This document shows positions 880-29,368 of a stretch of DNA of 64,000 nt, in pieces; the stretch's first letter is position 1; every line of letters begins with the position of its first letter. This DNA is from Escherichia phage vB_Eco_QOTSP, in sequence record OY720014; one strand, 5' to 3'. The translations under genes and the position numbers were made by a program. The notes under the pieces were generated by a model. That model did not search any database, had not been told where the DNA came from, and saw nothing but the letters and a program-made list of their open reading frames with translations.

Positions 880-939
880 TTTACAAGTCCCTCGTGTTGT
901 GTTATAGTAGTCTTACTGACATAACATGAGGAACACAAA

Positions 940-1230: not shown

Positions 1231-1236
1231 AAATAT

Positions 1237-1254
1237 GGGGACCGAAAGGTCCCC
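1237..1254. terminator. bidirectional hairpin GGGGACC-GAAA-GGTCCCC between convergent ORF 940 and gene 54
   Basis: Perfect 7-bp stem, GAAA loop, between convergent stops. Confidence 0.6.
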
Positions 1255-1258
1255 ATTG

Positions 1259-3318: not shown

Positions 3319-3326
3319 ATTATTCC

Positions 3327-5099: not shown

Positions 5100-5629
5100 T
5101 CAAATAATCCAATAATATTACCAATTCCAGTTATTGGACCATTAGGGCCAGGAATTGCTAAAGTTGTAAAAATATCATTTGCCCATTTTAAAACGAATGC
5201 TGGCATCTCAAGAAAATTAATTTCTTTAACTTCATCATTGACCTTAAGCAAGCATTTGGATAACATATCGCTCACCGTTAAAAATTGTTCAAATTTTCCA
5301 GGAGGTCTAAAATAAAATGTATTTCCTTGGTATTGAAATTCTAATCTTTGGCATACATAAACATCATTAATGTCATAAGTATAACCATCTATTTCTTTAC
5401 GAGATTTAATCTTTCCATTAAATTCCAATAAATGAATGGAAACGAAATCAACTTCTGCTGGTGATAAATTCGGGCAAATAGAATCAATAAGAAGTTTTAA
5501 ATTTTCATCAGGACCTTTAACATCTTTTAAAATGTTATAATGTTTAAGACCCATTTTAGGAATAGAAACTTCTTTATTGCTTATTGGAAGAACTACTTTC
5601 TTCAGTGGTAGTATCAGATTTAAATTCAT
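5096..5629 (-). CDS. 28: baseplate hub distal subunit gp28
   Basis: 177 aa ORF overlapping 3' end of gene 27 as in T4; start not verified. Confidence 0.75.
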
Positions 5630-6749
5630 TTTTAACCTTAACTGGGTCTATTGTTTCCAGTTTCGTTGCATTAGTGAACATATATAGATGAGTTACTGAA
5701 TTATTATTGGATAATTCATGGATGACTTCATCAACGTAAAATTCTGTTTTAAATTGGTTTTTACTATCATTAAAAATAATTTTAACTCCAGGAGTCAAGT
5801 TAAAATTACCGACAGTAGAACATTTAGCGTAACCATCATACTGCGCCATAGTCTGAAGACGAATAGCTTCTTCATAGCCATTCCTATAAGTCATTTCAGA
5901 ATAAGCACCTGACCTTGACACTACAATAGAGTTTTCACCCTTTCCTGTAGTAATCATTGGCAATGAAGAATCCAAAAACGAATGCGCATAGATAGTAGCG
6001 TTTTTCATTGGGTCACGTTTGTGAGGATTCGATTTAGTCAACCAAACGAAATCATATGCTAATGGATATTTCAATTCTTGGACGAATTGACCTATTAAAG
6101 ATGGCTCACCGACAATCATTGGATATGGTTCTTGATTTATCATCATATCATAGTCCATCATGTTAACTCCCATGATGTCTTGCCACACAAATACAAATTT
6201 GTCACTTCCTACCGCTAGAGCAACTTCTCTTACATATGACAAATAGTTTTCAAATGTGCTAGTCCATGGAATATCAGGAACATAAGCATTTATAGCATTT
6301 ATTGCTGGAGTTAATAATGTGCGATCTTGATAAATGACACCAAGCATTTCTTTTATAGATTCACCTGCATCAGGGAAAAATGGTCTACCAAATTTAAGAT
6401 TTTCTATAGAATGAATAGTTCCCAATTCAATAGCAATGATGTTATCACCTTTTGAATCTACTGACACAGAAAAATGCTTGCATCCATAAATTCGTGTTTT
6501 AACATTATTAATATCGTTTGCATTAGCTACAGAAATCTGAATTATTTCATTTCCATCCATTTTTGTGTGGATATTTTTAGAATCATAAAACTGCAGCATT
6601 CCTTCATTTCGTCCATAAAGAGAATCCCGCATAGTTAATGTGGTAATAGTAGCAGCTAATTCAACAAATCTATTATTACTCCAAGCGTCGTAGCTATCAA
6701 ATAATTTAACGCTGAGATTTGGATATCCGGGGCGTTGCAACATACTCAT
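5574..6749 (-). CDS. 27: baseplate hub subunit gp27
   Basis: 391 aa, T4 synteny and length. Confidence 0.85.
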
Positions 6750-7498
6750 TATTGTTTATCCTTCTCAATCAGTTTTAATACGAATCCGCGCTCGGCAGGA
6801 ATCATTTTCATTATTGAATTTAAGCTATAATTACTTTTTACGAGTGCGTGATTAATTTGATAAAAAGTAAATATTTCATCTGGGTTAACTAATAGCTTAA
6901 ACACATCTACTATATCAGTGTATTTTTTAATGTACTTATTACAGCATGACATATGTAGAGTTAAATTAATAGGATTCATTGCATCGAGAATTTTTTCTAA
7001 TGTTTCTATCTCGATGGCATCAACAAGTTCTATTTGGCTTGATTCACTAATTTCCTTCCAATCATACCATATTTCATCTACTTGAACAGAATGAATATTT
7101 TCAGTAATCATCTTTGCTTTATTTTCATAAAACTCAGAAGGAAACTTTAATTTAATTTTAACATTAGCTACATCAAAAACAGGTTCCTTTAATTCTTTTT
7201 GATATATTTCAAATGGAACTGTCTTTTCTTTTTTACATTTTGGACATACAAATGTGACGGGTACTTTAGTTTTACCTATTGAACCTACAAATACCTGCAA
7301 AAATATAAATGGTTGCCAAGTCTTCGGATAGTCTCCAAAATAATCATCAATTAAATCAGTAATTATTTCTTTTTGTTCTTGTGGTGACCGATGTTCTATA
7401 TCGTTTCGAACTAACAAAAAATCTCGATAATCTTCTACCGTAAATGGTTTAAAACGATGAACACCATCTGGTAATTTACAACGAATAATGTTTGCCAT
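6749..7498 (-). CDS. 51: baseplate hub assembly catalyst gp51
   Basis: 249 aa, divergent from gene 26, CxxC pairs. Confidence 0.85.
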
Positions 7499-7515
7499 AG
7501 ATGCTCCTTTTATTC

Positions 7516-7527
7516 TATTTATAAATA
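7516..7527. promoter_or_regulatory. overlapping divergent T4-type late promoters (TATAAATA on both strands) for genes 51 and 26
   Basis: Sequence TATTTATAAATA contains TATAAATA in both orientations, 20-25 bp from each start codon. Confidence 0.7.
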
Positions 7528-7548
7528 TGATAAATAAAGGAGCTAAAT

Positions 7549-8175
7549 ATGTATGAATATAAATTTGATGTGAGAGTTGGTTCTAAAATAATCAATTGTC
7601 GCGCATTCACGCTTAAAGAATATCTAGAACTTATTACTGCCAAAAATAATGGTTCCGTAGAAGTAATTGTTAAAAAGCTAATCAAAGACTGCACAAATGC
7701 AAAAGATTTAAACCGCCAAGAATCAGAACTATTGTTGATTCATTTATGGGCACATTCTCTTGGTGAAGTTAATCATGAAAATTCCTGGAAGTGCACCTGT
7801 GGAACTGAAATACCAACCCATATAAATCTATTACATACACAAATAGATGCACCAGAAGACCTCTGGTATACACTGGGTGACATTAAAATTAAATTCCATT
7901 ACCCTAAAATTTTTGATGATAAAAATATAGCCCACATGATAGTATCATGTATAGAAACGATTCATGCTAACGGGGAAAGCATTCCAGTTGAAGACTTAAA
8001 TGAAAAAGAATTGGAAGATTTATATTCTATCATCACAGAGTCAGATATTGTAGCTATAAAAGATATGCTTTTAAAGCCTACTGTTTATTTGGCTGTTCCA
8101 ATTAAGTGTCCAGAGTGTGGAAAAACTCACGCTCATGTAATAAGAGGACTCAAAGAATTCTTTGAGCTATTGTAA
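7549..8175 (+). CDS. 26: baseplate hub subunit gp26
   Basis: 208 aa, T4 synteny. Confidence 0.85.
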
Positions 8176-8573
8176 TGGCAAATATTAATAAGCTTTATTC
8201 TGATATTGACCCAGAGATGAAAATGGATTGGAACAAAGACGTTTCAAGATCACTTGGATTAAGGTCAATTAAAAATAGTCTTTTAGGAATTATTACAACA
8301 AGAAAAGGTTCAAGACCGTTTGACCCTGAATTTGGATGCGATTTATCTGACCAACTTTTTGAGAATATGACTCCTCTTACTGCTGACACGGTTGAGCGTA
8401 ATATCGAAAGCGCAGTAAGAAACTATGAGCCACGTATTGATAAATTAGCAGTTAATGTAATACCGGTTTATGATGATTATACTTTGATAGTAGAAATACG
8501 CTTTTCAGTCATCGATAACCCTGATGATATTGAGCAGATAAAACTACAACTGGCTTCCAGTAATAGAGTATAA
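8175..8573 (+). CDS. 25: baseplate wedge / sheath initiator gp25
   Basis: 132 aa, start overlaps gp26 stop; T4 gp25 length. Confidence 0.85.
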   Translation: MANINKLYSDIDPEMKMDWNKDVSRSLGLRSIKNSLLGIITTRKGSRPFDPEFGCDLSDQLFENMTPLTADTVERNIESAVRNYEPRIDKLAVNVIPVYDDYTLIVEIRFSVIDNPDDIEQIKLQLASSNRV

Positions 8574-8639
8574 TGCTTCACGTATAAACGTGGTATAATG
8601 AATCTAAGTCCATCCAATAACAATTGAATAGAGAACAAT

Positions 8640-9053
8640 ATGAGATTAGAAGATCTTCAAGAAGAATTGAAGAAAGATGTGTTTATAGATTCGACTAAAT
8701 TACAGTATGAAGCAGCTAATAATGTGATGTTATATAGTAAATGGCTTAATAAGCATTCAAGTATTAAAAAGGAAATGCTTAGAATCGATGCACAGAAAAA
8801 AGTTGCTCTTAAAGCTAAATTAGACTACTACTCGGGACGAGGAGATGGTGATGAATTTAGTATGGATCGTTACGAGAAATCAGAAATGAAGACAGTTCTA
8901 TCAGCTGATAAGGATGTTTTAAAGGTTGATACCTCGTTACAGTATTGGGGGATTTTATTAGATTTCTGTAGCGGAGCTCTTGATGCTATCAAATCACGCG
9001 GATTTGCTATTAAGCATATTCAAGACATGCGAGCATTTGAGGCTGGAAAATAA
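8640..9053 (+). CDS. uvsY: UvsY recombination mediator
   Basis: 137 aa, sequence recognisable as T4 UvsY. Confidence 0.9.
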   Translation: MRLEDLQEELKKDVFIDSTKLQYEAANNVMLYSKWLNKHSSIKKEMLRIDAQKKVALKAKLDYYSGRGDGDEFSMDRYEKSEMKTVLSADKDVLKVDTSLQYWGILLDFCSGALDAIKSRGFAIKHIQDMRAFEAGK

Positions 9054-9277
9054 TGAGATATAGCATTGATGATGCTTTTAATTATGAAGAAGAATTCGAA
9101 ACGGAAATTCAATTCTTAATGAAAAAGTATAATCTTAAGCGTCAGGATATTCGTATCCTGGCCGACCACCCGTGTGGTGAAGATGTCCTTTATATTAAAG
9201 GAAAATTTGCCGGATATCTTGATGAATATTTTTATTCTAAAGATATGGGCATTGATATGCATATGAGAGTTGTATAA
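9053..9277 (+). CDS. hypothetical protein (uvsY.-1 position)
   Basis: 74 aa ORF translationally coupled to uvsY. Confidence 0.6.
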   Translation: MRYSIDDAFNYEEEFETEIQFLMKKYNLKRQDIRILADHPCGEDVLYIKGKFAGYLDEYFYSKDMGIDMHMRVV

Positions 9278-9306
9278 ATAGATATATAATTCAGAGGAGA
9301 CAATCA

Positions 9307-9474
9307 TGTCAGATAAGATTTGTGTTGTCTGTAAAACTCCAATCGATTCTGCATTGGTTGTTGAAACAGACAAAGGTCCTGTACATCCTGGGCCTTGCTA
9401 TAATTACATTAAAGAACTACCAGTTTCAGAAAGTTCGGAAGAACAATTAAATGAAACACAACTTTTGCTATAGT
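9307..9474 (+). CDS. hypothetical small protein (uvsY.-2 position), 55 aa
   Basis: ATG with GAGGAG RBS; not in ORF track because under 60 aa; followed by terminator. Confidence 0.5.
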
Positions 9475-9496
9475 GTGACCTTTAGTCTATAGTTTT

Positions 9497-9526
9497 GGCC
9501 CTTCCTTTTTGGTTGGGCCTTTTTTA
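9497..9526. terminator. hairpin GGCCC...GGGCC followed by T6, between convergent uvsY operon and uvsW.1
   Basis: Stem-loop plus T-run seen directly. Confidence 0.6.
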
Positions 9527-9528
9527 AT

Positions 9529-9771
9529 TTAAAAGCTTTCTTCTACTTCATCGTCTGAATCTTCTAATTCAGCTCTTTTTCCTGCCAAAGCATCTCTGAC
9601 TGAGATGTCATCAGTATCTTTTAATTCAGTTTCTTTAACTCTTTTCTTATAATAAGCTTCAAGTTCTTCTAAACCTTCTAATGTTTGACAAGAGGCAATT
9701 TTACCCATAAATTCATCAATAGAAGCTTCATAAAGAAATTGTTTAAATTCTAGTAACATCTTTTTCTCCAA
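9529..9771 (-). CDS. uvsW.1: UvsW.1 small acidic protein
   Basis: 80 aa ORF immediately downstream of uvsW. Confidence 0.7.
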   Translation of the reverse strand: MEKKMLLEFKQFLYEASIDEFMGKIASCQTLEGLEELEAYYKKRVKETELKDTDDISVRDALAGKRAELEDSDDEVEESF

Positions 9772-9784
9772 AGGGCCGAAGCCC

Positions 9785-11296
9785 TTATAAATTAACTGTT
9801 TTCATTACGTAATTAAATTTTTCATCTGCGTAGCGCTGAATACGATCAATGCCGTGTTTTAAAAGATAGTTCAAATGAACATATTTCTTTTTCGTATTAG
9901 CAGATTTTGGCTTAACGCCACAATCATCTATGAGGTCCCAGACGGTTGCTATTGTCTTAGAACCATGCTTACGTAATACACGACCGATTGTTTGTAATAC
10001 AATGATTTTTGATTTAACACCGTGCGCTAAAACAACGTGATGCAGATTTTTAACTGAAATACCAGTAGAAAATACACCATAACTAGCTACTATAATTATT
10101 CCTTTACCATTTTCAGCTAAGGTTTTCATTATATTGCGGGTTTCGGTATCAACTTCCCCTGATACGTAATAAACTTTATCGTATTCATTTTTAATTAAAT
10201 CGAAAATAGCTTTACCATGTGATACATGTTTAAACATGACAAAAGCGTTTTCATCTTTTTGCGCAAGCTTAATAGCTAATTTAGCGATCCATTTATTTCT
10301 TTTACTAAGCCCCGTAATAATTTTTATTTCTTCTTGATAAGTTTTTCCCTTTAATTTAGTAGTGAACTCATCGGGATAGCGAAGAAAAATACTATTAATT
10401 TTTAGCTCAGTTACTTGTCCATCTTCCATTAATTTAGAAGTCGTTACTGGTTTAAATATTTCACCAAACATTCCAACATACTGCATGATATTGGCTTTGC
10501 CATCACGTAATGAACCAGATAGACCAAATTTGAACATGCAGTTATTTAAACCTGATATGATAGATGAAATACTTTTTCCTGTAGCAAGATGGCATTCATC
10601 ATTCATCATCATTCCAAACTGTGAGAACCATTCTTTCGGTTGTTTTACTACAGTTTGCCATGTACCAACAACGACTGGTGCATCATTTTTATATTTATCA
10701 TCTTTTGATGCTCCGCCACCAATTTTCTTTATCATTGCATGACTGAATAGACGATAGTCGACGAAGTCATCAGCCATCTGAGTTGTCAGAGCAGTTGTTG
10801 GAACAATGATAAGAATTTTACCTTCATAATTTTCCAAATAATATCGCGCAAGCAAAGCTTGAATTAAAGATTTACCTGCAGATGTTGGAAGATTAAGAAT
10901 TCTACGACGATTAACTAATCCTTCGAACACTGCATCTTTTTGATACCAGTGTGGTTCAATTCTTTTATTTCCTGAATAGATTTCTAATTTAGAAAGCCAT
11001 TCATCAAAATCTTTTCTTGATAATTCTTCTTTTTCGTTAATTTGTGGGTCAATCCAGGCTTTATAGCCAAAGTTATCACAGAACTTTTTAATTTGCCCGA
11101 CTAAGCCGAATGGAAGAAGGCGATTATAATCTAAAAGACGGATTCGTCCATCCCAGTGGCCATATTTGTATTTCGGATTAAAACGATACCCATCAGCTTC
11201 AAAGCTAAAGAAATCACGGAGTTCATGAAATGTACTTTCTTCACAATCAATTCTCACGTGACTAAAATCATAAAAATGTACTTTAATGTCAGTCAT
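9785..11296 (-). CDS. uvsW: UvsW DNA/RNA helicase
   Basis: 503 aa; Walker A (TSAGKS) and DECH box. Confidence 0.9.
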   Translation of the reverse strand: MTDIKVHFYDFSHVRIDCEESTFHELRDFFSFEADGYRFNPKYKYGHWDGRIRLLDYNRLLPFGLVGQIKKFCDNFGYKAWIDPQINEKEELSRKDFDEWLSKLEIYSGNKRIEPHWYQKDAVFEGLVNRRRILNLPTSAGKSLIQALLARYYLENYEGKILIIVPTTALTTQMADDFVDYRLFSHAMIKKIGGGASKDDKYKNDAPVVVGTWQTVVKQPKEWFSQFGMMMNDECHLATGKSISSIISGLNNCMFKFGLSGSLRDGKANIMQYVGMFGEIFKPVTTSKLMEDGQVTELKINSIFLRYPDEFTTKLKGKTYQEEIKIITGLSKRNKWIAKLAIKLAQKDENAFVMFKHVSHGKAIFDLIKNEYDKVYYVSGEVDTETRNIMKTLAENGKGIIIVASYGVFSTGISVKNLHHVVLAHGVKSKIIVLQTIGRVLRKHGSKTIATVWDLIDDCGVKPKSANTKKKYVHLNYLLKHGIDRIQRYADEKFNYVMKTVNL

Positions 11297-11346
11297 GTCT
11301 AAATACCATGTAATAAATATATCTATATTTATACTGAGGAAATATT

Positions 11347-12027
11347 ATGATAGATAAAGATTATATTGCAGAGCTGAAGGCTCTTGATGATAACAAAGAA
11401 GCTAAAGCTAAATTAGCTGAATATGCTGAACAGTTTGGTATAAAGGTCAAAAAGAATAAATCTTTTGATAATATCGTTGTTGATATTGAAGAAGCTCTCC
11501 AGAAGCTCGCTAGTGAACCTATGCCAGAGACTGATGGGTTATCTATTAAAGACTTAATTGATGCTGCTGATGCTGCAGAGGGATTAAAATATGACGATGA
11601 AGAAGTCAATCCAGAAGCAGCACTTTTGATTGATTCTCCAGTTAAATCTGACATTAAAATTGAAGTAGTAGAAACGGATAAAATTCCTGAAAATACCGAT
11701 GTTTTGATTGAAGATACTCCTTTTGTTGAAGAAAAATTCGAACAGGCTGTAGCTGAGATTATTGAATCTGAAAAGCCGTCTGTATTTACTCTTCCGGAAA
11801 ACTTTAGCCCGAATCTTCAGTTGATTGGAAAAAATCCAGGATTCTGTACTGTTCCTTGGTGGATTTATCAATGGATCGCTGAAACTCCGGATTGGAAATC
11901 TCACCCAACTAGTTTTGAGCATGCTTCTGCACACCAAACATTATTTAGCTTAATTTATTACATTAACCGTGACGGATCAGTTTTAATTCGTGAAACACGC
12001 AATTCTTCTTTCGTAACATTAAAATAA
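11347..12027 (+). CDS. inh: Inh, inhibitor of prohead protease (by position and size)
   Basis: 226 aa ORF immediately upstream of hoc. Confidence 0.65.
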   Translation: MIDKDYIAELKALDDNKEAKAKLAEYAEQFGIKVKKNKSFDNIVVDIEEALQKLASEPMPETDGLSIKDLIDAADAAEGLKYDDEEVNPEAALLIDSPVKSDIKIEVVETDKIPENTDVLIEDTPFVEEKFEQAVAEIIESEKPSVFTLPENFSPNLQLIGKNPGFCTVPWWIYQWIAETPDWKSHPTSFEHASAHQTLFSLIYYINRDGSVLIRETRNSSFVTLK

Positions 12028-12036
12028 GGATAACTT

Positions 12037-13455
12037 ATGGCTTTTACAGTTGATATAACTCCTAAAACACCTACTGGAGTTATAGATCAGACTCAGCAGT
12101 TTACTGCTACGCCCAGTGGTCAAACTGGAGATGGACCTATTACATATGCTTGGACTGTTGATGATGTTCCACAAGATGGGGCTGAAGCAACTTTTAGTTA
12201 TGTACTAAAAGGTCCTGCCGGTCAAAAGACTATTAAGGTAGTTGCAACAAATCCAGTTCCTGATACTGAAGCTGAAACAGCAGAAGCTACTACAACTATC
12301 ACAGTTCAAAATAAGACACAGACGACTACCTTAGCCGTAACTCCTGCTAGTCCTGCGGCTGGAGTGATTGGAACAGCTGTTGAATTTACCGCTGCTTTGG
12401 CTTCGCAGCCATTAGGCGCATCTGCTACGTATCAATGGTACGTTGACGGTTCTCCTGTGAGCGAAGCGACTAGCGCTACATTCAATTACACTCCTGACAC
12501 AAGCGGAGTTAAAACAATTAAGTGTGTGGCTCAAGTAACCGCGACAGATTATGACGCAAAAGAAGTTACTTCTAATGAAGTGTCACTGACTGTTAATAAA
12601 AAGACACAGACAACTACTTTGGCAGTAACTCCCGATAGTCCTGCGGCTGGAGTGATTGGAACCCCAGTTCAATTTACTGCTGCCTTAGCTTCTCAACCTG
12701 ATGGAGCATCTGCTACGTATCAGTGGTATGTAGATGATTCACAAGTTGGTGGAGAAACTAACTCTACATTTAGCTATACTCCAACTACAAGTGGAGTAAA
12801 AAGAATTAAATGCGTAGCCCAAGTAACTGCTGAAAATTACAATGAAAAGGAAGTTACTTCGAATGAAGTATCATTAACAGTTAATAAGAAGACAATGAAT
12901 CCACAGGTTACATTGACTCCTCCTTCTATTAACGTTCAACAAGATGCTTCGGCTACATTTACTGCTAATGTCACTGATGCTCCAGAAGAAGCGCAAATTG
13001 CGTATTCATGGAAGAAAGATTCTTCTCCTGTAGAAGGGTCAACTAATGTATATACCGTTGATACCTCATCTATTGGAAGTCAAACTATTGAAGTTACTGC
13101 AACTGTTACTGCTGCTGATTATGATAGCAAAACTATTACGGCGGAAGGTCAAGTTCAGGTAACTGATAAAGTTGCTCCAGAGCCAGAAGGTGAATTACCT
13201 TATGTTCATCCTCTTCCACATCGTACTTCAGCTTACATCTGGTGTGGTTGGTGGGTTATGGATGAAATCCAAAAAATGACCGAAGAAGGTAAAGATTGGA
13301 AAACTGACGATCCAGATAGTAAGTACTACTTGCATCGTTACACTCTCCAGAAGATGATGAAAGACTATCCAGAAGTTGATGTTCAAGAATCACGTAATGG
13401 ATACATCATTCATAAAACTGCTTTAGAAACTGGTATCATCTATACCTATCCATAA
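12037..13455 (+). CDS. hoc: Hoc, highly immunogenic outer capsid protein with an extra Ig-like domain
   Basis: 472 aa; recognisable Hoc N- and C-termini; internal 288-bp tandem repeat. Confidence 0.9.
   Translation: MAFTVDITPKTPTGVIDQTQQFTATPSGQTGDGPITYAWTVDDVPQDGAEATFSYVLKGPAGQKTIKVVATNPVPDTEAETAEATTTITVQNKTQTTTLAVTPASPAAGVIGTAVEFTAALASQPLGASATYQWYVDGSPVSEATSATFNYTPDTSGVKTIKCVAQVTATDYDAKEVTSNEVSLTVNKKTQTTTLAVTPDSPAAGVIGTPVQFTAALASQPDGASATYQWYVDDSQVGGETNSTFSYTPTTSGVKRIKCVAQVTAENYNEKEVTSNEVSLTVNKKTMNPQVTLTPPSINVQQDASATFTANVTDAPEEAQIAYSWKKDSSPVEGSTNVYTVDTSSIGSQTIEVTATVTAADYDSKTITAEGQVQVTDKVAPEPEGELPYVHPLPHRTSAYIWCGWWVMDEIQKMTEEGKDWKTDDPDSKYYLHRYTLQKMMKDYPEVDVQESRNGYIIHKTALETGIIYTYP
12313..12888 (+). 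repeat. in-frame tandem duplication (2 x 288 bp, about 80% identical) encoding two Ig-like Hoc domains
   Basis: Units begin AAGACACAGAC at 12313 and 12601, each ending in the Lys codons preceding the next unit. Confidence 0.85.
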
Positions 13456-13461
13456 TCATAA

Positions 13462-13482
13462 GGGGCTTCGGCCCCTTTCTTC
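13462..13482 (+). terminator. intrinsic terminator after hoc (GGGGC-TTCG-GCCCC + T-rich)
   Basis: Hairpin and T-run seen. Confidence 0.6.
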
Positions 13483-13544
13483 ATTTTGAAAGCACACAAA
13501 ACACAATCAGAAAATGATGTATATAATGGCACCAACTCGATAAC

Positions 13545-13760
13545 ATGAGATTGATTATGAGAACTGAGGTTGTGGTGTTTACTCTTCATGAGTCTGGAAA
13601 GTCATTCATTGAAATTGCTCGTGAATTAAACTTACAGGCAAAAGAAGTGGCTGTATTATGGGCTCGAGCTATGACTGCTAAGAATAAATTTGAAACTCGA
13701 GAAAAAGTTGTCTATAGAAAAAGACATATCAATAAAAAGGTGAAAAATGGAACAGTATGA
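13545..13760 (+). CDS. hypothetical protein (71 aa)
   Basis: ORF between hoc and rnlB; start uncertain. Confidence 0.45.
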   Translation: MRLIMRTEVVVFTLHESGKSFIEIARELNLQAKEVAVLWARAMTAKNKFETREKVVYRKRHINKKVKNGTV

Positions 13761-14025
13761 TCTTTATGAAAATGAATCTTTTGCTAATCAATTACGTGAA
13801 AAAGCATTAAAAAGTAAACAGTTTAAGCTAGAGTGTTTTATTAAAGATTTTTCAGAACTTGCTAATAAAGCAGCTGAACAAGGTAAAACATATTTTAGTT
13901 ATTATTGTACTGCTCGCGATAAATTGATTACTGAGGAAATTGGTGATTGGCTGAGAAAAGAAGGATTTAATTTTAAAGTCAATAGTGATCAGCGTGATGG
14001 TGATTGGTTAGAAATTACATTTTGA
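13747..14025 (+). CDS. hypothetical protein (92 aa)
   Basis: ORF between hoc and rnlB. Confidence 0.55.
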   Translation: MEQYDLYENESFANQLREKALKSKQFKLECFIKDFSELANKAAEQGKTYFSYYCTARDKLITEEIGDWLRKEGFNFKVNSDQRDGDWLEITF

Positions 14026-14034
14026 GGATTAATT

Positions 14035-15039
14035 ATGTTTAAAAAGTATAGCAGTCTTGAAAATCATTACAACTCTAAATTTATTGAAAAACTTTATAGC
14101 TTAGGATTGACTGGAGGCGAATGGGTAGCTCGTGAAAAGATTCACGGCACAAATTTCTCATTGATTATTGAGCGTGATAAAGTAACTTGCGCTAAACGTA
14201 CTGGACCGATTCTTCCTGCTGAAGATTTCTTCGGTTATGAAATTATTTTAAAGAATTACGAAGATTCTATTAAAGCTGTCCAAGAAATTATGGAAACTTC
14301 AGCTGTTGTGACTTATCAAGTTTTTGGCGAATTCGCTGGACCTGGCATTCAGAAGAATGTTGATTATGGCGATAAAGATTTTTATGTATTTGACATTATT
14401 GTCACTACCGAAAGTGGTGATGTAACTTATGTTGATGATTACATGATGGAATCGTTTTGTAATTCATTTGGGTTTAAAATCGCTCCACTTTTAGGCCGCG
14501 GTAAATTTGAAGAGCTTATTAAATTGCCAAATGATTTAGATTCTGTCGTCCAAGATTATAATTTTACAGTAGACCATGCTGGATTAGTTGACGCTAACAA
14601 ATGTGTTTGGAAAGCTGAAGCCAAAGGCGAAGTATTTACCGCTGAAGGATATGTATTGAAACCTTGTTATCCTTCTTGGCTGCCTAATCGCAATCGTGTA
14701 GCCATCAAATGCAAGAATTCTAAATTTAGTGAAAAGAAAAAGTCTGATAAGCCTATTAAAGCTAAAGTTGAACTGTCAGAAGCTGATAACAAATTGGTGG
14801 GGATTTTAGCTTGTTACGTTACACTAAACCGAGTAAATAACGTTATTTCTAAAATTGGCGAAATTGGTCCAAAAGATTTTGGAAAGGTGATGGGACTAAC
14901 TGTTCAAGATATTTTGGAAGAAACTTCTCGTGAAGGTATTACTCTAACTCAAGCGGATAATCCTTCTTTGATTAAAAAGGAATTAGTTAAAATGGTACAA
15001 GATGTACTTCGTCCGGCTTGGATTGAATTGGTAAGTTAA
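14035..15039 (+). CDS. rnlB: RNA ligase 2 (RnlB)
   Basis: 334 aa; nucleotidyltransferase motif [10 protein letters not shown]. Confidence 0.9.
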
Positions 15040-15046
15040 ATAAAAA

Positions 15047-15070
15047 GGGACCGAAAGGTCCCTTTGTTTT
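15047..15070. terminator. bidirectional hairpin GGGACC-GAAA-GGTCCC + T-run between rnlB and gene 24
   Basis: Seen directly. Confidence 0.65.
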
Positions 15071-16352
15071 ATTCATCAATGATAATTTTTGGTAGCTTAA
15101 CACCTAATAAAACAGACAAATCTGAACGACCCGCCATTTTATCCATGTCTCCACCATCAATTACTCTTGCTTCTTTTTCATCTTTTGCTACGGTGTAAGG
15201 ATTTGCAGATAAAGCATATCTAACTAATAAACCGATAGACGGTTGCAAGCTTTCTGGATCAACAACAACTTTAAATGCACCTACATGTTCAGGGTCATCT
15301 AAGTCGAGACCTTCTGTATACGGAGCATAGAAAATTGATCCAACAATTTCTTTTTCACCGATATTTTCTACTACGCCAACGATTACATAATCTAATGGGC
15401 TGTTAGTATCGCAATAAAGTGGTAAACCATTAGCTAAAAACCCATAGGCATTTTGTGAAAGATATTTATCATCTTCTGGTTTATGTTTTAACCAACCTGA
15501 TGCAGCAAGAATCGCGGCGGCACGAGCAGAAGCAACACAGAACGTTGCTGTATAAGTTGATTCTTTTTGGATATGCGAAACCATTTCACATACCATTCGG
15601 TATAATGAACGACCAGCTTCAGGTGCAGATGCATAACTCAAATCAATGAATCCAGTATCAGTAATTCCTGTAACTTTATAACGTTTTGATACTGTAATCA
15701 AAGACTGCAGAATATCTTTATTGATTTCATCTGCCATTTCAGTTGCAAGCAAATCTTCCAAGAAATTAGGAGCATCGAATCCATTTGCTTCTAAATCTTG
15801 TGCTAATTCAACTGTGATACCAGTTTTAAGTTTGCGAGATTTAACTGCGGTTTGCCATTTATTAATCTGGAATCTAGCATCCGCAATTTCACTATCAGAG
15901 CTTTCAAATTTGCTTGTTGATGCTGCGTCAGAAAATAGACGAACCTTTAAAAGAACAATTGCAATCTGAAGAGCTAATTCTAAATCGCTTTCTTCAATAT
16001 CAGCAAATGGTGTATCTTCTAATACTTTATAAACGATATTATTATATTTGAATAAATCGCCTTTATTGAGAGTTAATTTAGACTCTTCTGTTAATTCTGT
16101 GATTTGTTCTCGGTCTACATATCCGGCTTCGCCAGCGTAAGTAGCACCAGTTTTAAATGTAAATTCATTGTCTGGGTTAAGGTATTTGATACCATAAAAA
16201 GCAGCAACAGGTTGATTAGTTCTTTGCGTTGCTACAATGTCAGAATATATTAATTTAGTGGTAGCGCGAGTCAAAGCAACGAGATTTGGGCGACCGATTG
16301 AGTTGCTATTCGTTGTGGTTGATTCGCGCAGAAGTTCGTTGATTTTAGCCAT
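15069..16352 (-). CDS. 24: head vertex protein gp24
   Basis: 427 aa, paralogous to gp23, T4 position. Confidence 0.9.
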   Translation of the reverse strand: MAKINELLRESTTTNSNSIGRPNLVALTRATTKLIYSDIVATQRTNQPVAAFYGIKYLNPDNEFTFKTGATYAGEAGYVDREQITELTEESKLTLNKGDLFKYNNIVYKVLEDTPFADIEESDLELALQIAIVLLKVRLFSDAASTSKFESSDSEIADARFQINKWQTAVKSRKLKTGITVELAQDLEANGFDAPNFLEDLLATEMADEINKDILQSLITVSKRYKVTGITDTGFIDLSYASAPEAGRSLYRMVCEMVSHIQKESTYTATFCVASARAAAILAASGWLKHKPEDDKYLSQNAYGFLANGLPLYCDTNSPLDYVIVGVVENIGEKEIVGSIFYAPYTEGLDLDDPEHVGAFKVVVDPESLQPSIGLLVRYALSANPYTVAKDEKEARVIDGGDMDKMAGRSDLSVLLGVKLPKIIIDE

Positions 16353-16404
16353 TGCGCTTTCCTTTTGGTTTATATGATTTATTTATACCATAAAAACAAC
16401 TAAA

Positions 16405-16420
16405 GGGACCCGAAGGTCCC
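16405..16420. terminator. hairpin GGGACC-CGAA-GGTCCC between genes 23 and 24
   Basis: Seen directly; same hairpin family as 1237 and 15047. Confidence 0.5.
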
Positions 16421-16435
16421 TTAAATCGTCAAAGA

Positions 16436-18001
16436 TTAGATACCTTTAACATATACACGGCGGAAGTAAGCGTTTTTACCAAGGCTATTCAGAATAGAAG
16501 GCATACCGCTCTGGATGCGAGAAGCCGGAGCCTGAGCAGCGGATTCTGCAAATGGGTTGATACCGATACCGTAACGAGTTTTGAATCCCATTACCGGTTG
16601 GAAGTTCTTCGGATCGGAACCACGCAGCGGAGTCAGAGCTACATATGGAGCGTAGTAAATACCAGCATCCATTTCGTTCGGACCTTTATAACCTACAGTG
16701 AAATAATCCTGTTTAGCATACTGGTCGATATATACACGGTATTTACCACCCAGAACACCAGCAAATACTGACTTGGTAGTATCAGTGTTAAAGCCGGTAG
16801 CCAGACCCTGTGCAGCATAAGAAATGCCAGTATCAACTGAAGCCAGAACGTTAACTACGTTACGGGAAGCGATAATGAAGTTACCTTCACCACGACCGGT
16901 CTGACGAGCAATTTCAACTGCTTCTTTGTCAATCTGGAACAACAGAGCTTTAAAGGATTCACCCGCCCAGCGAGCACCACGAATATCAATCGGATCCTGG
17001 AAGTCAAATACACCAGCTTTAGAACCCGGAGTCAGGGTCATACCAGATTTACCAACCTGAGCTGAGTAGTTAATCCAATCAACAACTTCGCGGTTGATTT
17101 CCAGCATGATTTCGGTAGCCAGAATACCAGACAGTTCAGCATCAGCATCCATACCGTGAACAGCGCGGAGGTCTTGTGCTAATTCGATAGAGTAAGCAGC
17201 TTTCAGCTGGCGAGATTTAGCTTCGATAACTTGTTTATCGATACGGAAGCCCATTTCATTCCATGGGTTATCGGTAGAACCGTTGAAACCTTCCTGAAGT
17301 TCAGCGATAGAAGTAGCCATACCTTCTGCGATTTCTACCAGTACACCAGCTTCCATTTGTTTCTTAATTTCAGCATCTAATTTAGCTGCATCATCTGCAG
17401 TAGAACTAATTGTTACTTGAGCAGAAGCTTGCAGATACACAGTACCAGTGTCCTGGAAGAAGTGAGTATAGATATCACCTACTGTAGTTTGCGTGCTAGC
17501 AGCCAGAGCTGGGAATTTCTTAGCAGCACCCTGACCAGAGAACATTGCATCTGGACCATACATTGGGTGGAATGCTTCTTTAGCGCCGGAAGCGATTGGG
17601 TCTTTACCATATACTGCGCGCAGTGCGAATACCTGGCCAGTCGGGCTGTTCATCGGCTGAACACCACAAATATCGAAAGCAATCAGGTTAGGAATAGCAC
17701 GACGTACCATACCCATAACAGCTGGGCCAATCTGAGTTACTGCGCCAGAAGTCTGACCTGCAGCGATGTTGGTAGCATTGTAACCGTGGTCACCACCGAT
17801 TTCAGCTTCTGTTAAGAAAGAACCAAATGCCTGAGCAATTTTTTCGTCTTTGTATTCTGGAGCTGTCTGGAAATCTTTTTCCTGGTTTTCAAAGATTTTA
17901 GCGATAATCGCTTGTTTGCTATTAGCAATTTCCGGTAAACCTTCACCTTCCAGTAATGGCTTCCATTTGTTCAAAAGTTCAGCTTTAGTTTTGATAGTCA
18001 T
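16436..18001 (-). CDS. 23: major capsid protein gp23
   Basis: 521 aa, N-terminus MTIKTKAELLNKWKPLLEG... recognisable as T4 gp23; high GC and host-like codon usage. Confidence 0.95.
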   Translation of the reverse strand: MTIKTKAELLNKWKPLLEGEGLPEIANSKQAIIAKIFENQEKDFQTAPEYKDEKIAQAFGSFLTEAEIGGDHGYNATNIAAGQTSGAVTQIGPAVMGMVRRAIPNLIAFDICGVQPMNSPTGQVFALRAVYGKDPIASGAKEAFHPMYGPDAMFSGQGAAKKFPALAASTQTTVGDIYTHFFQDTGTVYLQASAQVTISSTADDAAKLDAEIKKQMEAGVLVEIAEGMATSIAELQEGFNGSTDNPWNEMGFRIDKQVIEAKSRQLKAAYSIELAQDLRAVHGMDADAELSGILATEIMLEINREVVDWINYSAQVGKSGMTLTPGSKAGVFDFQDPIDIRGARWAGESFKALLFQIDKEAVEIARQTGRGEGNFIIASRNVVNVLASVDTGISYAAQGLATGFNTDTTKSVFAGVLGGKYRVYIDQYAKQDYFTVGYKGPNEMDAGIYYAPYVALTPLRGSDPKNFQPVMGFKTRYGIGINPFAESAAQAPASRIQSGMPSILNSLGKNAYFRRVYVKGI

Positions 18002-18019
18002 TTGTGTTAACCTTTAAAA

Positions 18020-18829
18020 TTAGAAACGAGATGCGACTTTCGCATATACACTTACAATATCTTCTGCACCTTGTGCAGCTTTATCTTCTACAGCTTCAGT
18101 GACGAAATTCAGTCCGGCTGCTTCAGTATCAGGAGTATTTATACTCTCAGTAATAGTGCTTTCATCTTTATTAGATTTCTTCACCATTTCTACGATTGCA
18201 CTCAATTTACTTGAGAATGCATCTGAATAATCCATACCTTCGACCAGAGCAGAGACTTTTTCTTTTTGAGACTCAGTCAGATCTTTAGTACTTTCGCTCA
18301 ATGCCACTTCACGCTGCACATAATTGATATATGCGTCACGCTTATTGAGTTCTTCGAACAGACGAGCTGATTCTTCTTTATGTTCTTGCAGCTCTTCTTC
18401 CATTTCAGCTACAACATCAACTGATTCTTCTGGAACAACAACGTTGTGTTCAACAAAGAGCTCTTTTAATCCACCAAGCATGGATTCAAACAGTTCGGCT
18501 TTGATGCCTTTATCAACTGCTAATTTATTTTCAGCGAGCCATTCTTTCGCAAGATGGTCAATGAATTTAGAAGCTTGCTCAGCGATTTTCTTCTCAGCTT
18601 TTTCTTCGGCTTCTTCTTTATTTTTTTCTACTTCTTCTTCTGCTTTTTCAGCAATTTTAGCGATATGAGATTCAGCTAATTTAACGGCGTGCTGCTTGAC
18701 GGTAGCTTCGAATACAGTGCCGAAAGTTTCTTTTGCTTCCGGAGAAATATTAACTGATTCGAAAATACTATCAAGAGCAACGGAAGCATCAATTTTTTGC
18801 GCTTCAGCAATCAGTTGTTCTTTAAGCAT
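18020..18829 (-). CDS. 22: prohead scaffold protein gp22
   Basis: 269 aa, acidic coiled-coil. Confidence 0.9.
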   Translation of the reverse strand: MLKEQLIAEAQKIDASVALDSIFESVNISPEAKETFGTVFEATVKQHAVKLAESHIAKIAEKAEEEVEKNKEEAEEKAEKKIAEQASKFIDHLAKEWLAENKLAVDKGIKAELFESMLGGLKELFVEHNVVVPEESVDVVAEMEEELQEHKEESARLFEELNKRDAYINYVQREVALSESTKDLTESQKEKVSALVEGMDYSDAFSSKLSAIVEMVKKSNKDESTITESINTPDTEAAGLNFVTEAVEDKAAQGAEDIVSVYAKVASRF

Positions 18830-18855
18830 TTTGTAGTCCTGTTGTTTAGATAATA

Positions 18856-18863
18856 ATATTTAT
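18856..18863 (-). promoter_or_regulatory. late promoter TATAAATA upstream of gene 22
   Basis: Exact TATAAATA on minus strand about 27 bp from start codon. Confidence 0.6.
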
Positions 18864-19498
18864 AACGCTTTTTTCATGGCCTCTGCGAGAGCCATATAGG
18901 CGTCATCGGCACTTGTATCGGCTTCCGCCGTCTGTGATTCGGTAATTTCCTTAGGAGTTACCCATGCATCTGGAGCACTTGGACCCCATACTGCATCAAC
19001 ACCTACAGTTAATTTGAATCCTTCGTTTACGATACGATAACCTTTATTTGTGTCAGTCAATGAACCTAATCCACGAGAAGAAACTCCTGGAATCCATCCG
19101 GCACGAATATTAGCTGCTAATTTATCTCCAGGACCATGGTCACCTTCAATAACACGAGCTCGTCCGTATACGTCATTTCCTTTCCACCACATATCTTCTA
19201 TAATGATAGCGGCTTGCATCGGGTCAACATTAGCGCGTGGAGGATGATTTAATTCTCCGAGAGCTTGTTTAGTTAAAACTTGCTCATTGATATAGTCTTT
19301 TACCGCTTTTTCTAATATGCGTTTTGGATAAAGACGTTTATTTCTATTGACGACTTCCGCTTGCATGAATATTCCTTCGATGTATAAACCAGGTTTTAAA
19401 CCTAGGTCTTTTCCATCATGAGATTCAAGCATTGGCACGCCATCAATAATTTCGCCAGGTTGACCCCAAGTTTCAATTAGTAATTGGGGTTCATTCAT
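18860..19498 (-). CDS. 21: prohead core protease gp21
   Basis: 212 aa, recognisable T4 gp21. Confidence 0.9.
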   Translation of the reverse strand: MNEPQLLIETWGQPGEIIDGVPMLESHDGKDLGLKPGLYIEGIFMQAEVVNRNKRLYPKRILEKAVKDYINEQVLTKQALGELNHPPRANVDPMQAAIIIEDMWWKGNDVYGRARVIEGDHGPGDKLAANIRAGWIPGVSSRGLGSLTDTNKGYRIVNEGFKLTVGVDAVWGPSAPDAWVTPKEITESQTAEADTSADDAYMALAEAMKKAL

Positions 19499-19923
19499 TA
19501 GCTTAATCCTAATGCTTTACGGCGTTTAAGAGCTTTTTTACGCTTACGCTGAGCACGAGATTGACCTGCTGGGTTGGCAATCTTCGTTTTGGTAGCTTTG
19601 CGAGCAATTTGTCTACGTTTTGCTTTAGACAGCCCGGTGGTTTGAAATGCATTACGTTCACGCGTCTTGCGGTCTTTAGTACGTGTAATTTCACCACGAG
19701 CAGAAACATGTTTAACGATGAATTCATTTAGCGGCATATCTTCATTAATAGAAGCTAATGCAATCGCTAAATCAGTTTCATCATCAAGCATATTCTCGAC
19801 AATTGTATTTATATCGTCTTTATTTAAAGCAGAAGACAATTCGTCAAAGCGACCCTGTGCTTCAGGAATAAGTGCTTCGACATTCTCGAGAACTAATTCA
19901 TGAGTTTCAGGGATCAGAAGCAT
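19498..19923 (-). CDS. 68: prohead core protein gp68
   Basis: 141 aa, position. Confidence 0.8.
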
Positions 19924-20179
19924 TATTCATCATCCTCGTCTTCGTCATCTTCGTCAGAGTCTTTGTCTTTTTTGTCGTCTTTATCATCGCTATCTTCATC
20001 ATCCTCGTCTTCGTCATCATCCTCGTCATCAGGTTCTTCACCTTCGATTAAGAAATTACGAGCGATAGCGATTTTTTCTTCTTTAATTAAATCAATCGTT
20101 CTTGCAGCCATGGCTTCAGCAAAGAATTTACGAGCGGCTACGAGGTCGTTTGATTTAATAGCTTCAATTAAACCTTCCA

Positions 20180-20180
<1 letters not shown>
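19923..20180 (-). CDS. 67: prohead core protein gp67 with poly-acidic tail
   Basis: 85 aa; Asp/Glu-rich low-complexity C-terminus. Confidence 0.8.
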
Positions 20181-21805
<1,625 letters not shown>

Positions 21806-21837
21806 TTAAGCAGGATGGGGATTTCTCCCCATTCATT

Positions 21838-22329
21838 TTATTCCCAATAATCGAGAGCAAGAGTTACTTCAAAGGTTTGGATTTCATTGTTTGAATCCCA
21901 ATCTAATTGAAGTTCACCCACGTTAGTAGGCCATAGACCTTTAATTTCAATTTCTTTTGTTACTGTTTTAGCGTCACGAGCATATTGACGAACGATAGCG
22001 CTCTTTTTATACTCTGCAGGTTTTCCACCAGTAATTTCGTTTCCTTGCCCCGCAGCAATGCTTTGCCAATCAACGAACTTCTGGCGAGCATCATGTGCCT
22101 CATCGTTCATTACTGTAACAGTCCAGTCATCGAATGTACGATCGCCTGCTACGTTAATTTTACGGTTCATAAATCCGACTGGAATTTTTTCTACAATACC
22201 AGCTGGTAGAGCAGTAGCTTTACATTGGAACGTAAAATTTTGTCCAAGATAAGAAATTTCTACTTGGAATAAGTTAGGTCGAGCAAAATCACCAGATTCA
22301 AACGCTCGTGTTACATCATCTACAAACAT
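21838..22329 (-). CDS. 19: tail tube protein gp19
   Basis: 163 aa. Confidence 0.9.
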   Translation of the reverse strand: MFVDDVTRAFESGDFARPNLFQVEISYLGQNFTFQCKATALPAGIVEKIPVGFMNRKINVAGDRTFDDWTVTVMNDEAHDARQKFVDWQSIAAGQGNEITGGKPAEYKKSAIVRQYARDAKTVTKEIEIKGLWPTNVGELQLDWDSNNEIQTFEVTLALDYWE

Positions 22330-22343
22330 ATTAGCCTCTGTAG

Positions 22344-22351
22344 TATTTATA
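22344..22351 (-). promoter_or_regulatory. late promoter TATAAATA upstream of gene 19 (second copy at 22403..22410)
   Basis: Exact motif on minus strand; hairpin GGCCTG-CCGAAA-CAGGCC at 22413..22430. Confidence 0.6.
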
Positions 22352-22445
22352 TCCCTATGTTTAACCTAGGGCATATAGAATTAAAGAATTAAGGATATAG
22401 TGTATTTATATGGCCTGCCGAAACAGGCCTTTAGAATGCACCGTA

Positions 22446-24425
22446 TTAACCTGCAAGACCAGTTAACTCATCGAAATCTGCACCAGTAGCAGTTGCGACG
22501 AAATTCAAAGTAATATAATTTATACTGCGCGCCGGTTGGATGTAGAATGTTGCAACAAACTCATTTCTATCAATTACTGACGGAGTGTTATTTGTTGTAT
22601 CGCAAACTACACGATATTCATAAATTCCACCGAGAGCTTTAATTCCCTGTAAGTACTGGGCAGTTTCTGTGCGGAATGATGAACGAGTAAACGCATTGTT
22701 TAATTCGAACAAACGATATTTTGAACTACGTCCGATATTCGTTTTCAACATATTAAACAGACGACGAACGTTAATACGATCAAACGGAGAAGGAACAGAA
22801 GTAGCTGTTTTATCACCATACAATACGTAACCATCACCACCTGTACCAGTTACTGGGTTAATAGCTTCTTGGTATAAACGGTCGCGCTGAGCCTGGCGAG
22901 TTTCAATAGCAAGTTTAATAACGTTAAGAATCTGGCCACGATTATAACCAGCTGGAGACATCCAAGTCTGAGAAACGTTATCGGTTCTCGCGCATAAACC
23001 AGCAATATCAGCTGCTAATGGAACCCAACGATTCACATCATTATATTTGTCATACTGATATTTGTAGTTACCATCGATTGCTGCATAGGTTGAACTGATA
23101 TTAAAGTTATTATCAGTGTATGAACCTGCCGCAGTTCTCCAGTTAACTAAATTATCTACTGCACGAGTTACAGGAATTCCAACTACAGTTTCACGCGGAG
23201 GAGAGCACAATACTAAGCAATCTTGACGAGCATCCCCGATTGAAACAACATGTTTTTGGACAGTAGATGCTGTTTCTAAAGATTCACCGGCACAAGAACC
23301 CGCAATAAACAGCTGAACGTCAACAGATTCACGGTCAGCAAAGAAGTCCCAAGCTTCCATCAAATCTCCTGCTGTTACTTCAGCATTTGATGATAATCCA
23401 CCAGACAGAGTTAAAATTCCAGAGAAGCCTTCTGGCCAGTTTTGCGCAGTTGCAAAAATATATTCTGAACCACCTTTTGCGAAAAAGTCATCGATATAGA
23501 TGTTACTATCGTAAATATCTTTTTCACCACGCTTAGTTGAAAGAACAACGCTTTGAACAATAGCATCATTACGACGAACTATAATAGCATACTGTGAATC
23601 AGTTTGTGGTCCATATCCAAACACTGCTTTAGCAGTAGATGCACGAGTACCACCACCTGGATAAATTGGGAGTAATGCAGAAGCTCCTTTTGCGTAGTCA
23701 GCTTTAGATACGATTTCAATTTCAATTTTATCGCCTAATTCGCCTGGATAAAGAGCTACTACTCCTGGAATTCCGTATTTTTTGAGATTTGCTTGAAAGT
23801 CAACCGCTGTCATAGCAGCTTCAGCATTTTCAATTTCAGCTAATAAAATACCAGAATCAGTAATAATTTTTCCAAGAGTTATTACTGCAGCTAAACCAGA
23901 GGAAGACGAAGAAATTTCCGCAGTCCAGTTAGAACCTAATTCCGGATATTCACCGACTTCTTTCGCTTTAGCGATAATTTTTGCAGTAGGAATATTAATT
24001 TTCTTAATTTTTCCATCTGCGTCTACTTCAGTAATTTTACCTTCAGTTTCAATATCATCTGAAACATATTTGACCGTGATTTTATCTCCAACTGCATAGT
24101 TACTACCTGGGGTAGAAATTGTGTATTCAATATTACCAGCAATCGGAGATGAGTTTTTAGCGGTATCTCTATCGACAGCACGAACAACTCGTAAGTCATT
24201 TCCGTACTGTAAGAAATTCATCGCAGACATAAAATAGTCAGCAGTTTCAGCGGTTGGTTGACCAAAAGTATTAACTAAATCTACTTCATTTGTAACCTGT
24301 TTAATCTGAAAAGCAGGACCCCACTGGAATTTACCGGCCAAAGCTGCTGTACCAGTAGAGTTATTAACCACGGTGCTTTGAACCGTGGTTTCTTTGAGCT
24401 CAATGCCCGGAGATAATAAAGTCAT
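22446..24425 (-). CDS. 18: tail sheath protein gp18
   Basis: 659 aa. Confidence 0.95.
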   Translation of the reverse strand: MTLLSPGIELKETTVQSTVVNNSTGTAALAGKFQWGPAFQIKQVTNEVDLVNTFGQPTAETADYFMSAMNFLQYGNDLRVVRAVDRDTAKNSSPIAGNIEYTISTPGSNYAVGDKITVKYVSDDIETEGKITEVDADGKIKKINIPTAKIIAKAKEVGEYPELGSNWTAEISSSSSGLAAVITLGKIITDSGILLAEIENAEAAMTAVDFQANLKKYGIPGVVALYPGELGDKIEIEIVSKADYAKGASALLPIYPGGGTRASTAKAVFGYGPQTDSQYAIIVRRNDAIVQSVVLSTKRGEKDIYDSNIYIDDFFAKGGSEYIFATAQNWPEGFSGILTLSGGLSSNAEVTAGDLMEAWDFFADRESVDVQLFIAGSCAGESLETASTVQKHVVSIGDARQDCLVLCSPPRETVVGIPVTRAVDNLVNWRTAAGSYTDNNFNISSTYAAIDGNYKYQYDKYNDVNRWVPLAADIAGLCARTDNVSQTWMSPAGYNRGQILNVIKLAIETRQAQRDRLYQEAINPVTGTGGDGYVLYGDKTATSVPSPFDRINVRRLFNMLKTNIGRSSKYRLFELNNAFTRSSFRTETAQYLQGIKALGGIYEYRVVCDTTNNTPSVIDRNEFVATFYIQPARSINYITLNFVATATGADFDELTGLAG

Positions 24426-24453
24426 TTTTAATCCTCTTTAATATGCTTTAATA

Positions 24454-27594
<3,141 letters not shown>

Positions 27595-27635
27595 GATTTC
27601 TCCTAATCTGGGCTTTAATTAGTTTATAATATTTA

Positions 27636-29337
<1,702 letters not shown>

Positions 29338-29365: not shown

Positions 29366-29368
29366 ATG

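Follow-up and report, generated by a model that had tools for sequence, protein, structure and literature searches.

That T-even phages differ in whether they have free-standing homing endonuclease genes has been a textbook matter since the 1990s. In the T4 reference (NC_000866), segE is annotated at 112057..112674 between inh and uvsW; segD, annotated at 106561..107232, separates genes 23 and 24 and runs antisense to both. A sequence-only reading of the genome studied here had named these two locations, and the annotation agrees with it, the reference carrying both genes at these positions. A review whose table gives uvsW as the target of SegE also describes T2 as the phage classically excluded when it is crossed with T4 (PMC2988022). 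For RB30, SegE cleavage and roughly 100% homing have been shown, and RB52 is also a documented substrate, according to PMC2330249, citing Kadyrov 1997. PMC9523250, citing Sokolov 2018, reports that homing is not initiated by SegD.

Here we analyzed a window of 64,000 nucleotides (64 kb) from Escherichia phage vB_Eco_QOTSP, in which the two corresponding intergenic regions are short. Both spacers lack the endonuclease genes, with exact breakpoints relative to T4, and have the sequences of T2/RB30-type alleles. We read them, with a probability of about 0.88, as endonuclease-free alleles of known insertion sites of free-standing GIY-YIG homing genes, with an uncut SegE target at one site and, at the other, no expected conversion by SegD, which is reported not to home.

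The genome and its two short spacers

The window belongs to a Tequatrovirus genome and runs in reverse orientation relative to T4. It aligns with T4 over 860..63534 at ~92-98% identity by segment, with several indels. In this alignment segC, segD, and segE are all absent; hoc is longer than in T4, and the tRNA set is unlike that of T4. The best database records reach ~98% identity to the window, and none is identical. Gene positions were taken from the ORF listing and direct sequence reading, and Pfam identified UvsW_N and helicase domains, Gp23 for genes 23 and 24 alike, and RNA ligase 2.

The uvsW helicase gene (9785..11296, minus strand, 503 aa, ATG at 11296..11294; Pfam UvsW_N, ResIII, and Helicase_C) and inh (hoc.1; 11347..12027, plus strand, 226 aa in the ORF listing, collinear with T4 inh) are separated by 50 bp (11297..11346), a length that had been correctly given before and that the ORF listing and direct reading reproduce exactly. 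The BLASTN breakpoints and the reading of the junction place 19 bp (11291..11309) where T4 has a 635-bp segE cassette (T4 112045..112679). This segE-free spacer is identical to those of T2 (AP018813.1) and RB30 (Y13611.1), at 50/50 positions each. It holds a T4-late-promoter-like motif, TATAAATA, at 11326..11333 on the minus strand, facing uvsW and 30 nt upstream of its ATG, and a second motif, AATAAATA, at 11312..11319 on the plus strand, which matches the late-promoter consensus at 7/8 positions, faces inh, and is conserved in T4. Both were identified by eye, a sigma-70 promoter scan being uninformative (15 sites found vs 18 expected). The promoter function of such motifs is read from the T4 late-promoter consensus, and the region is probably a compact regulatory spacer with divergent late-promoter-like motifs. 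The split between uvsW and uvsW.1 was considered as a pseudogenizing mutation and ruled out: separate genes are the usual state, UvsW.1 forms a Pfam family of its own, and the fused 587-aa ORF of the T4 RefSeq reflects a one-base difference inside a GC hairpin.

At the other site, gene 24 (capsid vertex protein; 15069..16352, minus strand, 427 aa, Pfam Gp23 family, T4 synteny) and gene 23 (major capsid protein; 16436..18001, minus strand, 521 aa, Pfam Gp23) are separated by 83 bp (16353..16435), again exactly as first measured. Between the BLASTN breakpoints, 60 bp (16365..16424) stand in place of a 789-bp T4 segD cassette (T4 106522..107310), and the breakpoints are the same in PYPS2T. This segD-free, T2-type spacer matches T2 at 83/83 positions and is also 100% identical in phiD1, Sf24, and other phages. 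A terminator scan found a hairpin that resembles an intrinsic terminator at the end of gene 23 (16403..16422, minus strand), with the sequence AAGGGACC-TTCG-GGTCCCTT and a T-rich tail behind it, and TATAAATA, found by eye, recurs as a late-promoter-like motif at 16380..16387 on the minus strand, 28 nt ahead of the ATG of gene 24. This spacer, too, appears to be a compact regulatory one, combining the terminator hairpin of gene 23 with a putative late promoter for gene 24. The SegD recognition site is reportedly 16 bp long, as attributed to Sokolov's 2018 work, and reportedly does not differ between phages with and without segD; the window and T4 would be expected to have it in identical form.

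The absence of both genes, claimed from the length of the spacers, is borne out by the alignment breakpoints and by TBLASTN searches of the whole window with T4 SegD and SegE, which returned no orthologue or fragment, spacers included. When relocated or degraded seg genes were sought with T4 SegB, SegC, SegD, SegE, and MobD and with the PYPS2T uvsW-site endonuclease, the one GIY-YIG locus matched in the window was a SegB-like ORF at 51420..52070. It is hardly conceivable that the seg genes are missing through misassembly or a collapsed region. Contiguous empty junctions occur in 447 records for inh-uvsW and in 601 for 23-24, among them T2 and the Sanger-sequenced RB30 record of 1997; since independent genomes by the hundred show these junctions unbroken, there is no assembly artefact.

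Empty segD and segE sites are therefore real, ordinary, and already known. They are the majority state: segE is missing from about 70% of Tequatrovirus records and segD from about 90%, percentages that are rough because the record counts take in duplicate and laboratory T4 records. In themselves the empty sites matter little, the window having the T2/RB30 alleles base for base. The absence of the seg genes had also been offered as consistent with the genome not being T4. The window is indeed not T4, as its segmental identity and indels show, but the argument was overstated as evidence of identity, because most Tequatrovirus records are without segD/segE.

The uvsW 5′ block and its association with segE

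The flank of the inh-uvsW site on the uvsW side holds a distinct haplotype. The mismatch profile delimits a uvsW 5′ block of the RB30/T2 haplotype (11100..11296, minus strand), presumed to contain the SegE recognition/cleavage region. Compared with the segE-carrying genomes T4, slur02, and PYPS2T, the window has 35 mismatches within 11100..11290, the first ~190 nt of uvsW, whereas the sequence on either side of this block never exceeds 5 mismatches per 100 bp and usually stays at or below 3, and the inh side of the spacer shows no extra mismatches. The block is identical to RB30 at 139/140 positions (uvsW nt ~7-146), compared with 75.7% identity to T4, and uvsW nt 1-200 match T2 at 199/200. 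Most of the differences from the segE-carrying genomes are silent: 28 uvsW codons differ, 25 of them within codons 2-46, and 23 of the 28 differences are synonymous.

Across the collection, SegE at ≥95% identity was found in 159 of about 500 records and the T4-type uvsW block at ≥95% in 158; 159 records (606-447) have an interrupted inh-uvsW junction, and the window-type block at ≥95% is present in 335. The sampled record lists gave no counter-example to the pairing of segE with the T4-type block, the linkage being drawn from matching record counts and sampled lists, not from complete overlap of the record sets. Some ~17-24 alleles are intermediate (90-95% identity); one of them, that of UFV10, is mosaic and segE-less with a partial T4-type block, so the linkage is not absolute. 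The pattern supports the view that the diverged uvsW block tracks segE across the collection, the footprint that would be expected of homing with co-conversion. If so, the tight linkage of segE to a recoded uvsW block of ~140-190 nt over ~500 genomes would be a clean population-scale illustration of co-conversion, and no such footprint is seen at the segD site.

The window-type start of uvsW is also found outside the genus. The outgroup Mosigvirus JS09 is without segE, and its block is 83.6% identical to the window type vs 70.7% for T4. Over nt 1-42 of uvsW (ATGACTGACATTAAAGTACATTTTTATGATTTTAGTCACGTG), the window and this Mosigvirus are identical, and identity falls to ~68% over the following ~150 nt. 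One could speculate that the 42-nt identity stems from a constraint additional to protein coding (for instance, an RNA element or one acting in translation initiation) or from recent exchange between genera, that SegE exploits this stretch as its target, and that the segE-linked allele escaped cleavage by wholesale synonymous recoding; we offer this reading tentatively and regard it as doubtful. If true, immune, susceptible, and mosaic versions of the target would coexist in the population as a natural allelic series.

Origin of the empty sites and predicted homing

A lineage that once had segD and/or segE like T4 and later lost them by precise deletion could also have produced empty sites. 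Close relatives do vary in segE, as slur02, 97.8% identical to the window over 10 kb, has it, which points to recent gain or loss events; the ~621-bp size difference seen in the closest relatives, the slur phages, was at one point considered a gene 23 insertion, and this was ruled out, as it is segE at the inh-uvsW site. Loss or recombination could also yield mosaic alleles such as that of UFV10. However, neither ORF has left a remnant in the window, and the spacers are those of T2 base for base. In addition, a plain deletion of segE would leave a T4-type block, whereas the uvsW 5′ block is purely of the RB30/T2 type, an allele shared with the segE-less outgroup genus Mosigvirus. Because of this block and its presence in the outgroup, we set secondary deletion aside as the main origin of the empty sites and consider it improbable; the empty state is probably ancestral.

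The suggestion that the genome is a potential recipient of Seg-mediated homing stands for SegE and falls for SegD. At the inh-uvsW site, segE is absent, the target is RB30-like in both spacer and uvsW block, and the homology to donor flanks is sufficient for double-strand-break repair. The window genome is thus likely to be susceptible to SegE, judging from its sequence. It would carry an uncut SegE target allele at the uvsW site, and on co-infection with a segE-carrying phage (T4, slur02, or PYPS2T), SegE would be expected to cut near the 5′ end of uvsW. Repair of the break from the donor would copy segE in, and by co-conversion the donor's recoded uvsW 5′ end, ~140-190 nt, would enter along with it. 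With a documented SegE-susceptible allele, markers near uvsW are predicted to be excluded locally when the phage is crossed with T4-type phages.

If both sites were live homing targets, co-infection with T4 would bring both segD and segE into the genome. In favor of this, PYPS2T has a SegD orthologue (98%) at identical breakpoints, and JK45 has a SegD-like gene of 58% identity at the same 23-24 site; over evolutionary time, the 23-24 site has thus taken in invaders repeatedly. Nevertheless, the flanks of the segD site show 0-5 mismatches per 100 bp, with no donor-linked haplotype block, and SegD at ≥95% identity was found in only 54 of about 500 records, many of which are T4 itself. A live SegD target is thus unlikely. 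segD is absent from this site and non-reciprocal transfer into the empty allele is not indicated, because SegD is reported not to home and the flanks hold no donor-linked haplotype. In our preferred reading, that of endonuclease-free alleles with a target for SegE alone, segD would simply be missing here, and for the same reported lack of homing no preferential conversion would be expected.

Comparison with T4, T2, and RB30

Compared with the T4 segE cassette, the window has the same flanking genes, upstream late-promoter motif, and insertion point, but T4's 618-bp GIY-YIG ORF is missing, and the motif TATAAATA lies upstream of segE in T4. The uvsW 5′ block of the window is 24% divergent from that of T4, most of the changes being synonymous, and the window's uvsW is longer by one codon (MTD... 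in the window vs MD... in T4). At the T4 segD cassette, the same genes, 23 and 24, flank the window's spacer, and an analogous terminator-like hairpin for gene 23 and a putative gene 24 late promoter are present in T4 and the window alike. T4's antisense 672-bp ORF is missing from the window, and no linked haplotype is found in the flanks.

T2 is closer at both sites, its two spacers (AP018813.1) being equal to the window's in length as well as sequence. Outside these spacers, the window and T2 are different mosaics; for example, hoc is intact in the window (472 aa) and annotated in fragments in T2. An annotation of the genome as free of segC, segD, and segE and as the carrier of a documented SegE-susceptible allele can be given with confidence. 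The hoc.1(inh)-uvsW region of RB30, an experimentally defined SegE recipient, is like that of the window and without segE: the whole 1790-bp RB30 record is 97.6% identical to the window with no gaps, and its 43 substitutions are scattered, none of them falling in the spacer.

Absence of segD and segE in a Tequatrovirus setting

The sequence-only reading had placed segD between genes 23 and 24 of T4 and segE between inh and uvsW, and the annotation of the T4 reference (NC_000866) bears out both, with segD at 106561..107232, antisense to both of its neighbors, and segE at 112057..112674. The ORF list and the sequence of the window give exactly the spacers claimed: 50 bp between uvsW and inh (11297..11346) and 83 bp between genes 23 and 24 (16353..16435). 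At the segE breakpoint, 19 bp (11291..11309) stand where T4 has 635 bp (112045..112679), and at the segD breakpoint, 60 bp (16365..16424) stand where T4 has 789 bp (106522..107310). No copy of either gene, moved or decayed, was found in the whole window by TBLASTN with T4 SegD and SegE, and their absence is confirmed. The sole GIY-YIG locus matched was a SegB-like ORF (51420..52070, plus strand; 216 aa) flanked by tRNA-Gly and tRNA-Ser. It shares 83% identity with T4 SegB across the N-terminal 117 aa, the remainder being unrelated, and may be a domain-swapped endonuclease.

In the phage collection, megablast with window 9000..19000 found Tequatrovirus (T4-like) genomes in their hundreds, at identities of 95-98%, and no identical one; 40000..64000 likewise matches Tequatrovirus without an identical record. 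By BLASTN, T4 123112..60712 is collinear with window 860..63534 in reverse orientation. Window 1..860, 48543..49110, and 58420..59330 did not match the corresponding T4 regions (the alt.-2/alt.-3, ipI, and denV-ipII-ipIII areas, respectively); all are internal-protein loci that are commonly hypervariable. Around the two sites, the ORF list and sequence, with gene identities backed by Pfam, give uvsW (9785..11296, minus), inh (11347..12027), hoc (12037..13455), 24.3 (13545..13760), 24.2 (13747..14025), and rnlB (14035..15039), all five on the plus strand, then genes 24 (15069..16352) and 23 (16436..18001) on the minus strand.

Several other differences from T4 were observed. Hoc has 472 aa versus 376 aa in T4, and the double alignment of T4 110748..111053 to the window indicates an additional Ig/PKD-like domain of ~96 aa; the long form is also found in slur02, and the short form in PYPS2T, AV122, and KAW1E185. 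At the segC site (window 42181..42186), T4 80218..80774, a stretch taking in almost the whole of segC and the greater part of gene 5.3, is missing, and therefore gene 5.1 almost directly adjoins 5.4. The tRNA cluster (51176..52769, plus strand) holds 10 genes (Gln, Leu, Gly, Ser, Thr, Met, Tyr, Asn, His, and Arg), whereas that of T4 holds 8 and is unlike it in order and content. Finally, a GGGC-TTCG-GCCC hairpin lies between uvsW (503 aa) and uvsW.1, which form two distinct ORFs (window 9529..9785, minus strand; L001 14185..14200). The T4 RefSeq differs by one base in this hairpin and is annotated with a fused 587-aa UvsW, a discrepancy that probably goes back to an old sequencing compression in that record. 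Between these two genes, Yersinia phage PYPS2T carries a third homing endonuclease gene (L005 10513..11205; 230 aa), with no counterpart in T4 or, by TBLASTN, in the whole window.

Absence of segD and segE is the majority state. SegE is found at >=95% identity in 159 and SegD in 54 of roughly 500 Tequatrovirus records, counts that take in many T4 laboratory records. Of the records matching each junction, other genera included, 447 of 606 have the empty inh-uvsW junction uninterrupted, and 601 of 871 the empty 23-24 junction. Absence is for this reason weak evidence for the suggestion that the phage is not T4 itself. By BLASTN, the window is about 92-98% identical to T4 by segment, with a handful of indels. 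Slur02 is 97.8% identical to the window over 10 kb, yet has segE; since such close relatives differ, turnover at the inh-uvsW locus is recent.

A divergent uvsW 5' end linked to segE

Against each of three segE-containing genomes, T4, slur02, and PYPS2T, the window has 35-36 mismatches in 11100..11290, covering the first ~190 nt of uvsW, and nowhere else do they cluster; the remainder has no more than 3 per 100 bp toward uvsW and no more than 5 toward inh. Homing of segE with co-conversion would be expected to leave such a trace. Identity to T4 is 75.7% in a 140-nt uvsW block, as against 98.1% over the following 154 nt. Among the first 100 codons 28 differ (23 synonymously), all but three of them within codons 2-46, and the window begins MTD where T4 has MD, one codon more.

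Across the collection, the uvsW block tracks segE, as judged from agreeing counts and sampled lists rather than from full record-set overlap. The T4-type block is present at >=95% identity in 158 records, SegE at >=95% in 159, and an interrupted junction in 159 (606-447), while the window-type block is present at >=95% in 335; the sampled lists held no counter-example. The segE-free allele looks ancestral, because JS09, a Mosigvirus without segE, has a window-type uvsW start (42 nt identical), its block being 83.6% identical to the window versus 70.7% for T4. The segE cassette seems to have come in along with a uvsW 5' end that was foreign or recoded. Escherichia phage UFV10 (L008), also without segE, has a mosaic 5' end, window-type for the first ~85 nt and T4-type for the next ~55 nt (uvsW nt ~85-140), which shows that recombination takes place within the block; some 17-24 records have identities in the same intermediate range.

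Spacer anatomy and the segD site

The 50-bp spacer contains TATAAATA on the minus strand (11333..11326), 30 nt upstream of the uvsW ATG, and AATAAATA on the plus strand (11312..11319), ahead of inh. Read against the T4 consensus, both motifs resemble late promoters, which would make the spacer a short region of divergent late promoters. An identical TATAAATA lies upstream of segE in T4, in keeping with a review that places the promoter used by segE in non-coding sequence ahead of the ORF (PMC2988022).

The 83-bp spacer has a terminator-like hairpin 3' of gene 23 (16422..16403, terminator scan) and TATAAATA at 16387..16380, 28 nt upstream of the gene 24 ATG; segD itself is described as antisense, without its own promoter, and between terminators (PMC2988022). 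In the coding flanks in genes 23 and 24, the window and segD-containing genomes are nearly identical, differing at 0-5 positions per 100 bp, and no donor-linked block is seen. For SegD, the proposal that the window is a potential recipient of homing is unsupported. Even so, the site has been invaded on more than one occasion. In PYPS2T, a SegD 98% identical to that of T4 lies there with identical breakpoints (L005 2865..3515; a 4-aa deletion, SIKK, lies in the N-terminal GIY-YIG region), and Shigella phage JK45 (L009 1531..2460) has a SegD-like gene of 58% identity plus an extra 88-aa ORF, in the same antisense orientation.

Endonuclease-free alleles shared with T2 and RB30

The absence of segD and segE is an ordinary, already described polymorphism, in which the window matches T2/RB30-type alleles base for base. 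Both T2 spacers (AP018813.1) equal those of the window in length and are identical (50/50 and 83/83), as are 199 of the first 200 nt of uvsW; the RB30 record of 1997 (Y13611.1) is identical at 50/50 positions of the uvsW-inh spacer and at 139/140 of the uvsW 5' block. In the review PMC2988022, uvsW is given as the target of SegE. As reported in PMC2330249, the SegE cleavage site was mapped in the segE-less phages RB30 and RB52, and when T4 and RB30 infected cells together, homing of segE by SegE was almost 100% efficient, with co-conversion of the flanks. Given these homing data and the identity to RB30 and T2, the window is, by sequence, a carrier of the documented SegE recipient allele. For SegE, then, the proposed role as a potential recipient stands, and we infer from this identity that the phage would be susceptible to SegE as RB30 is.
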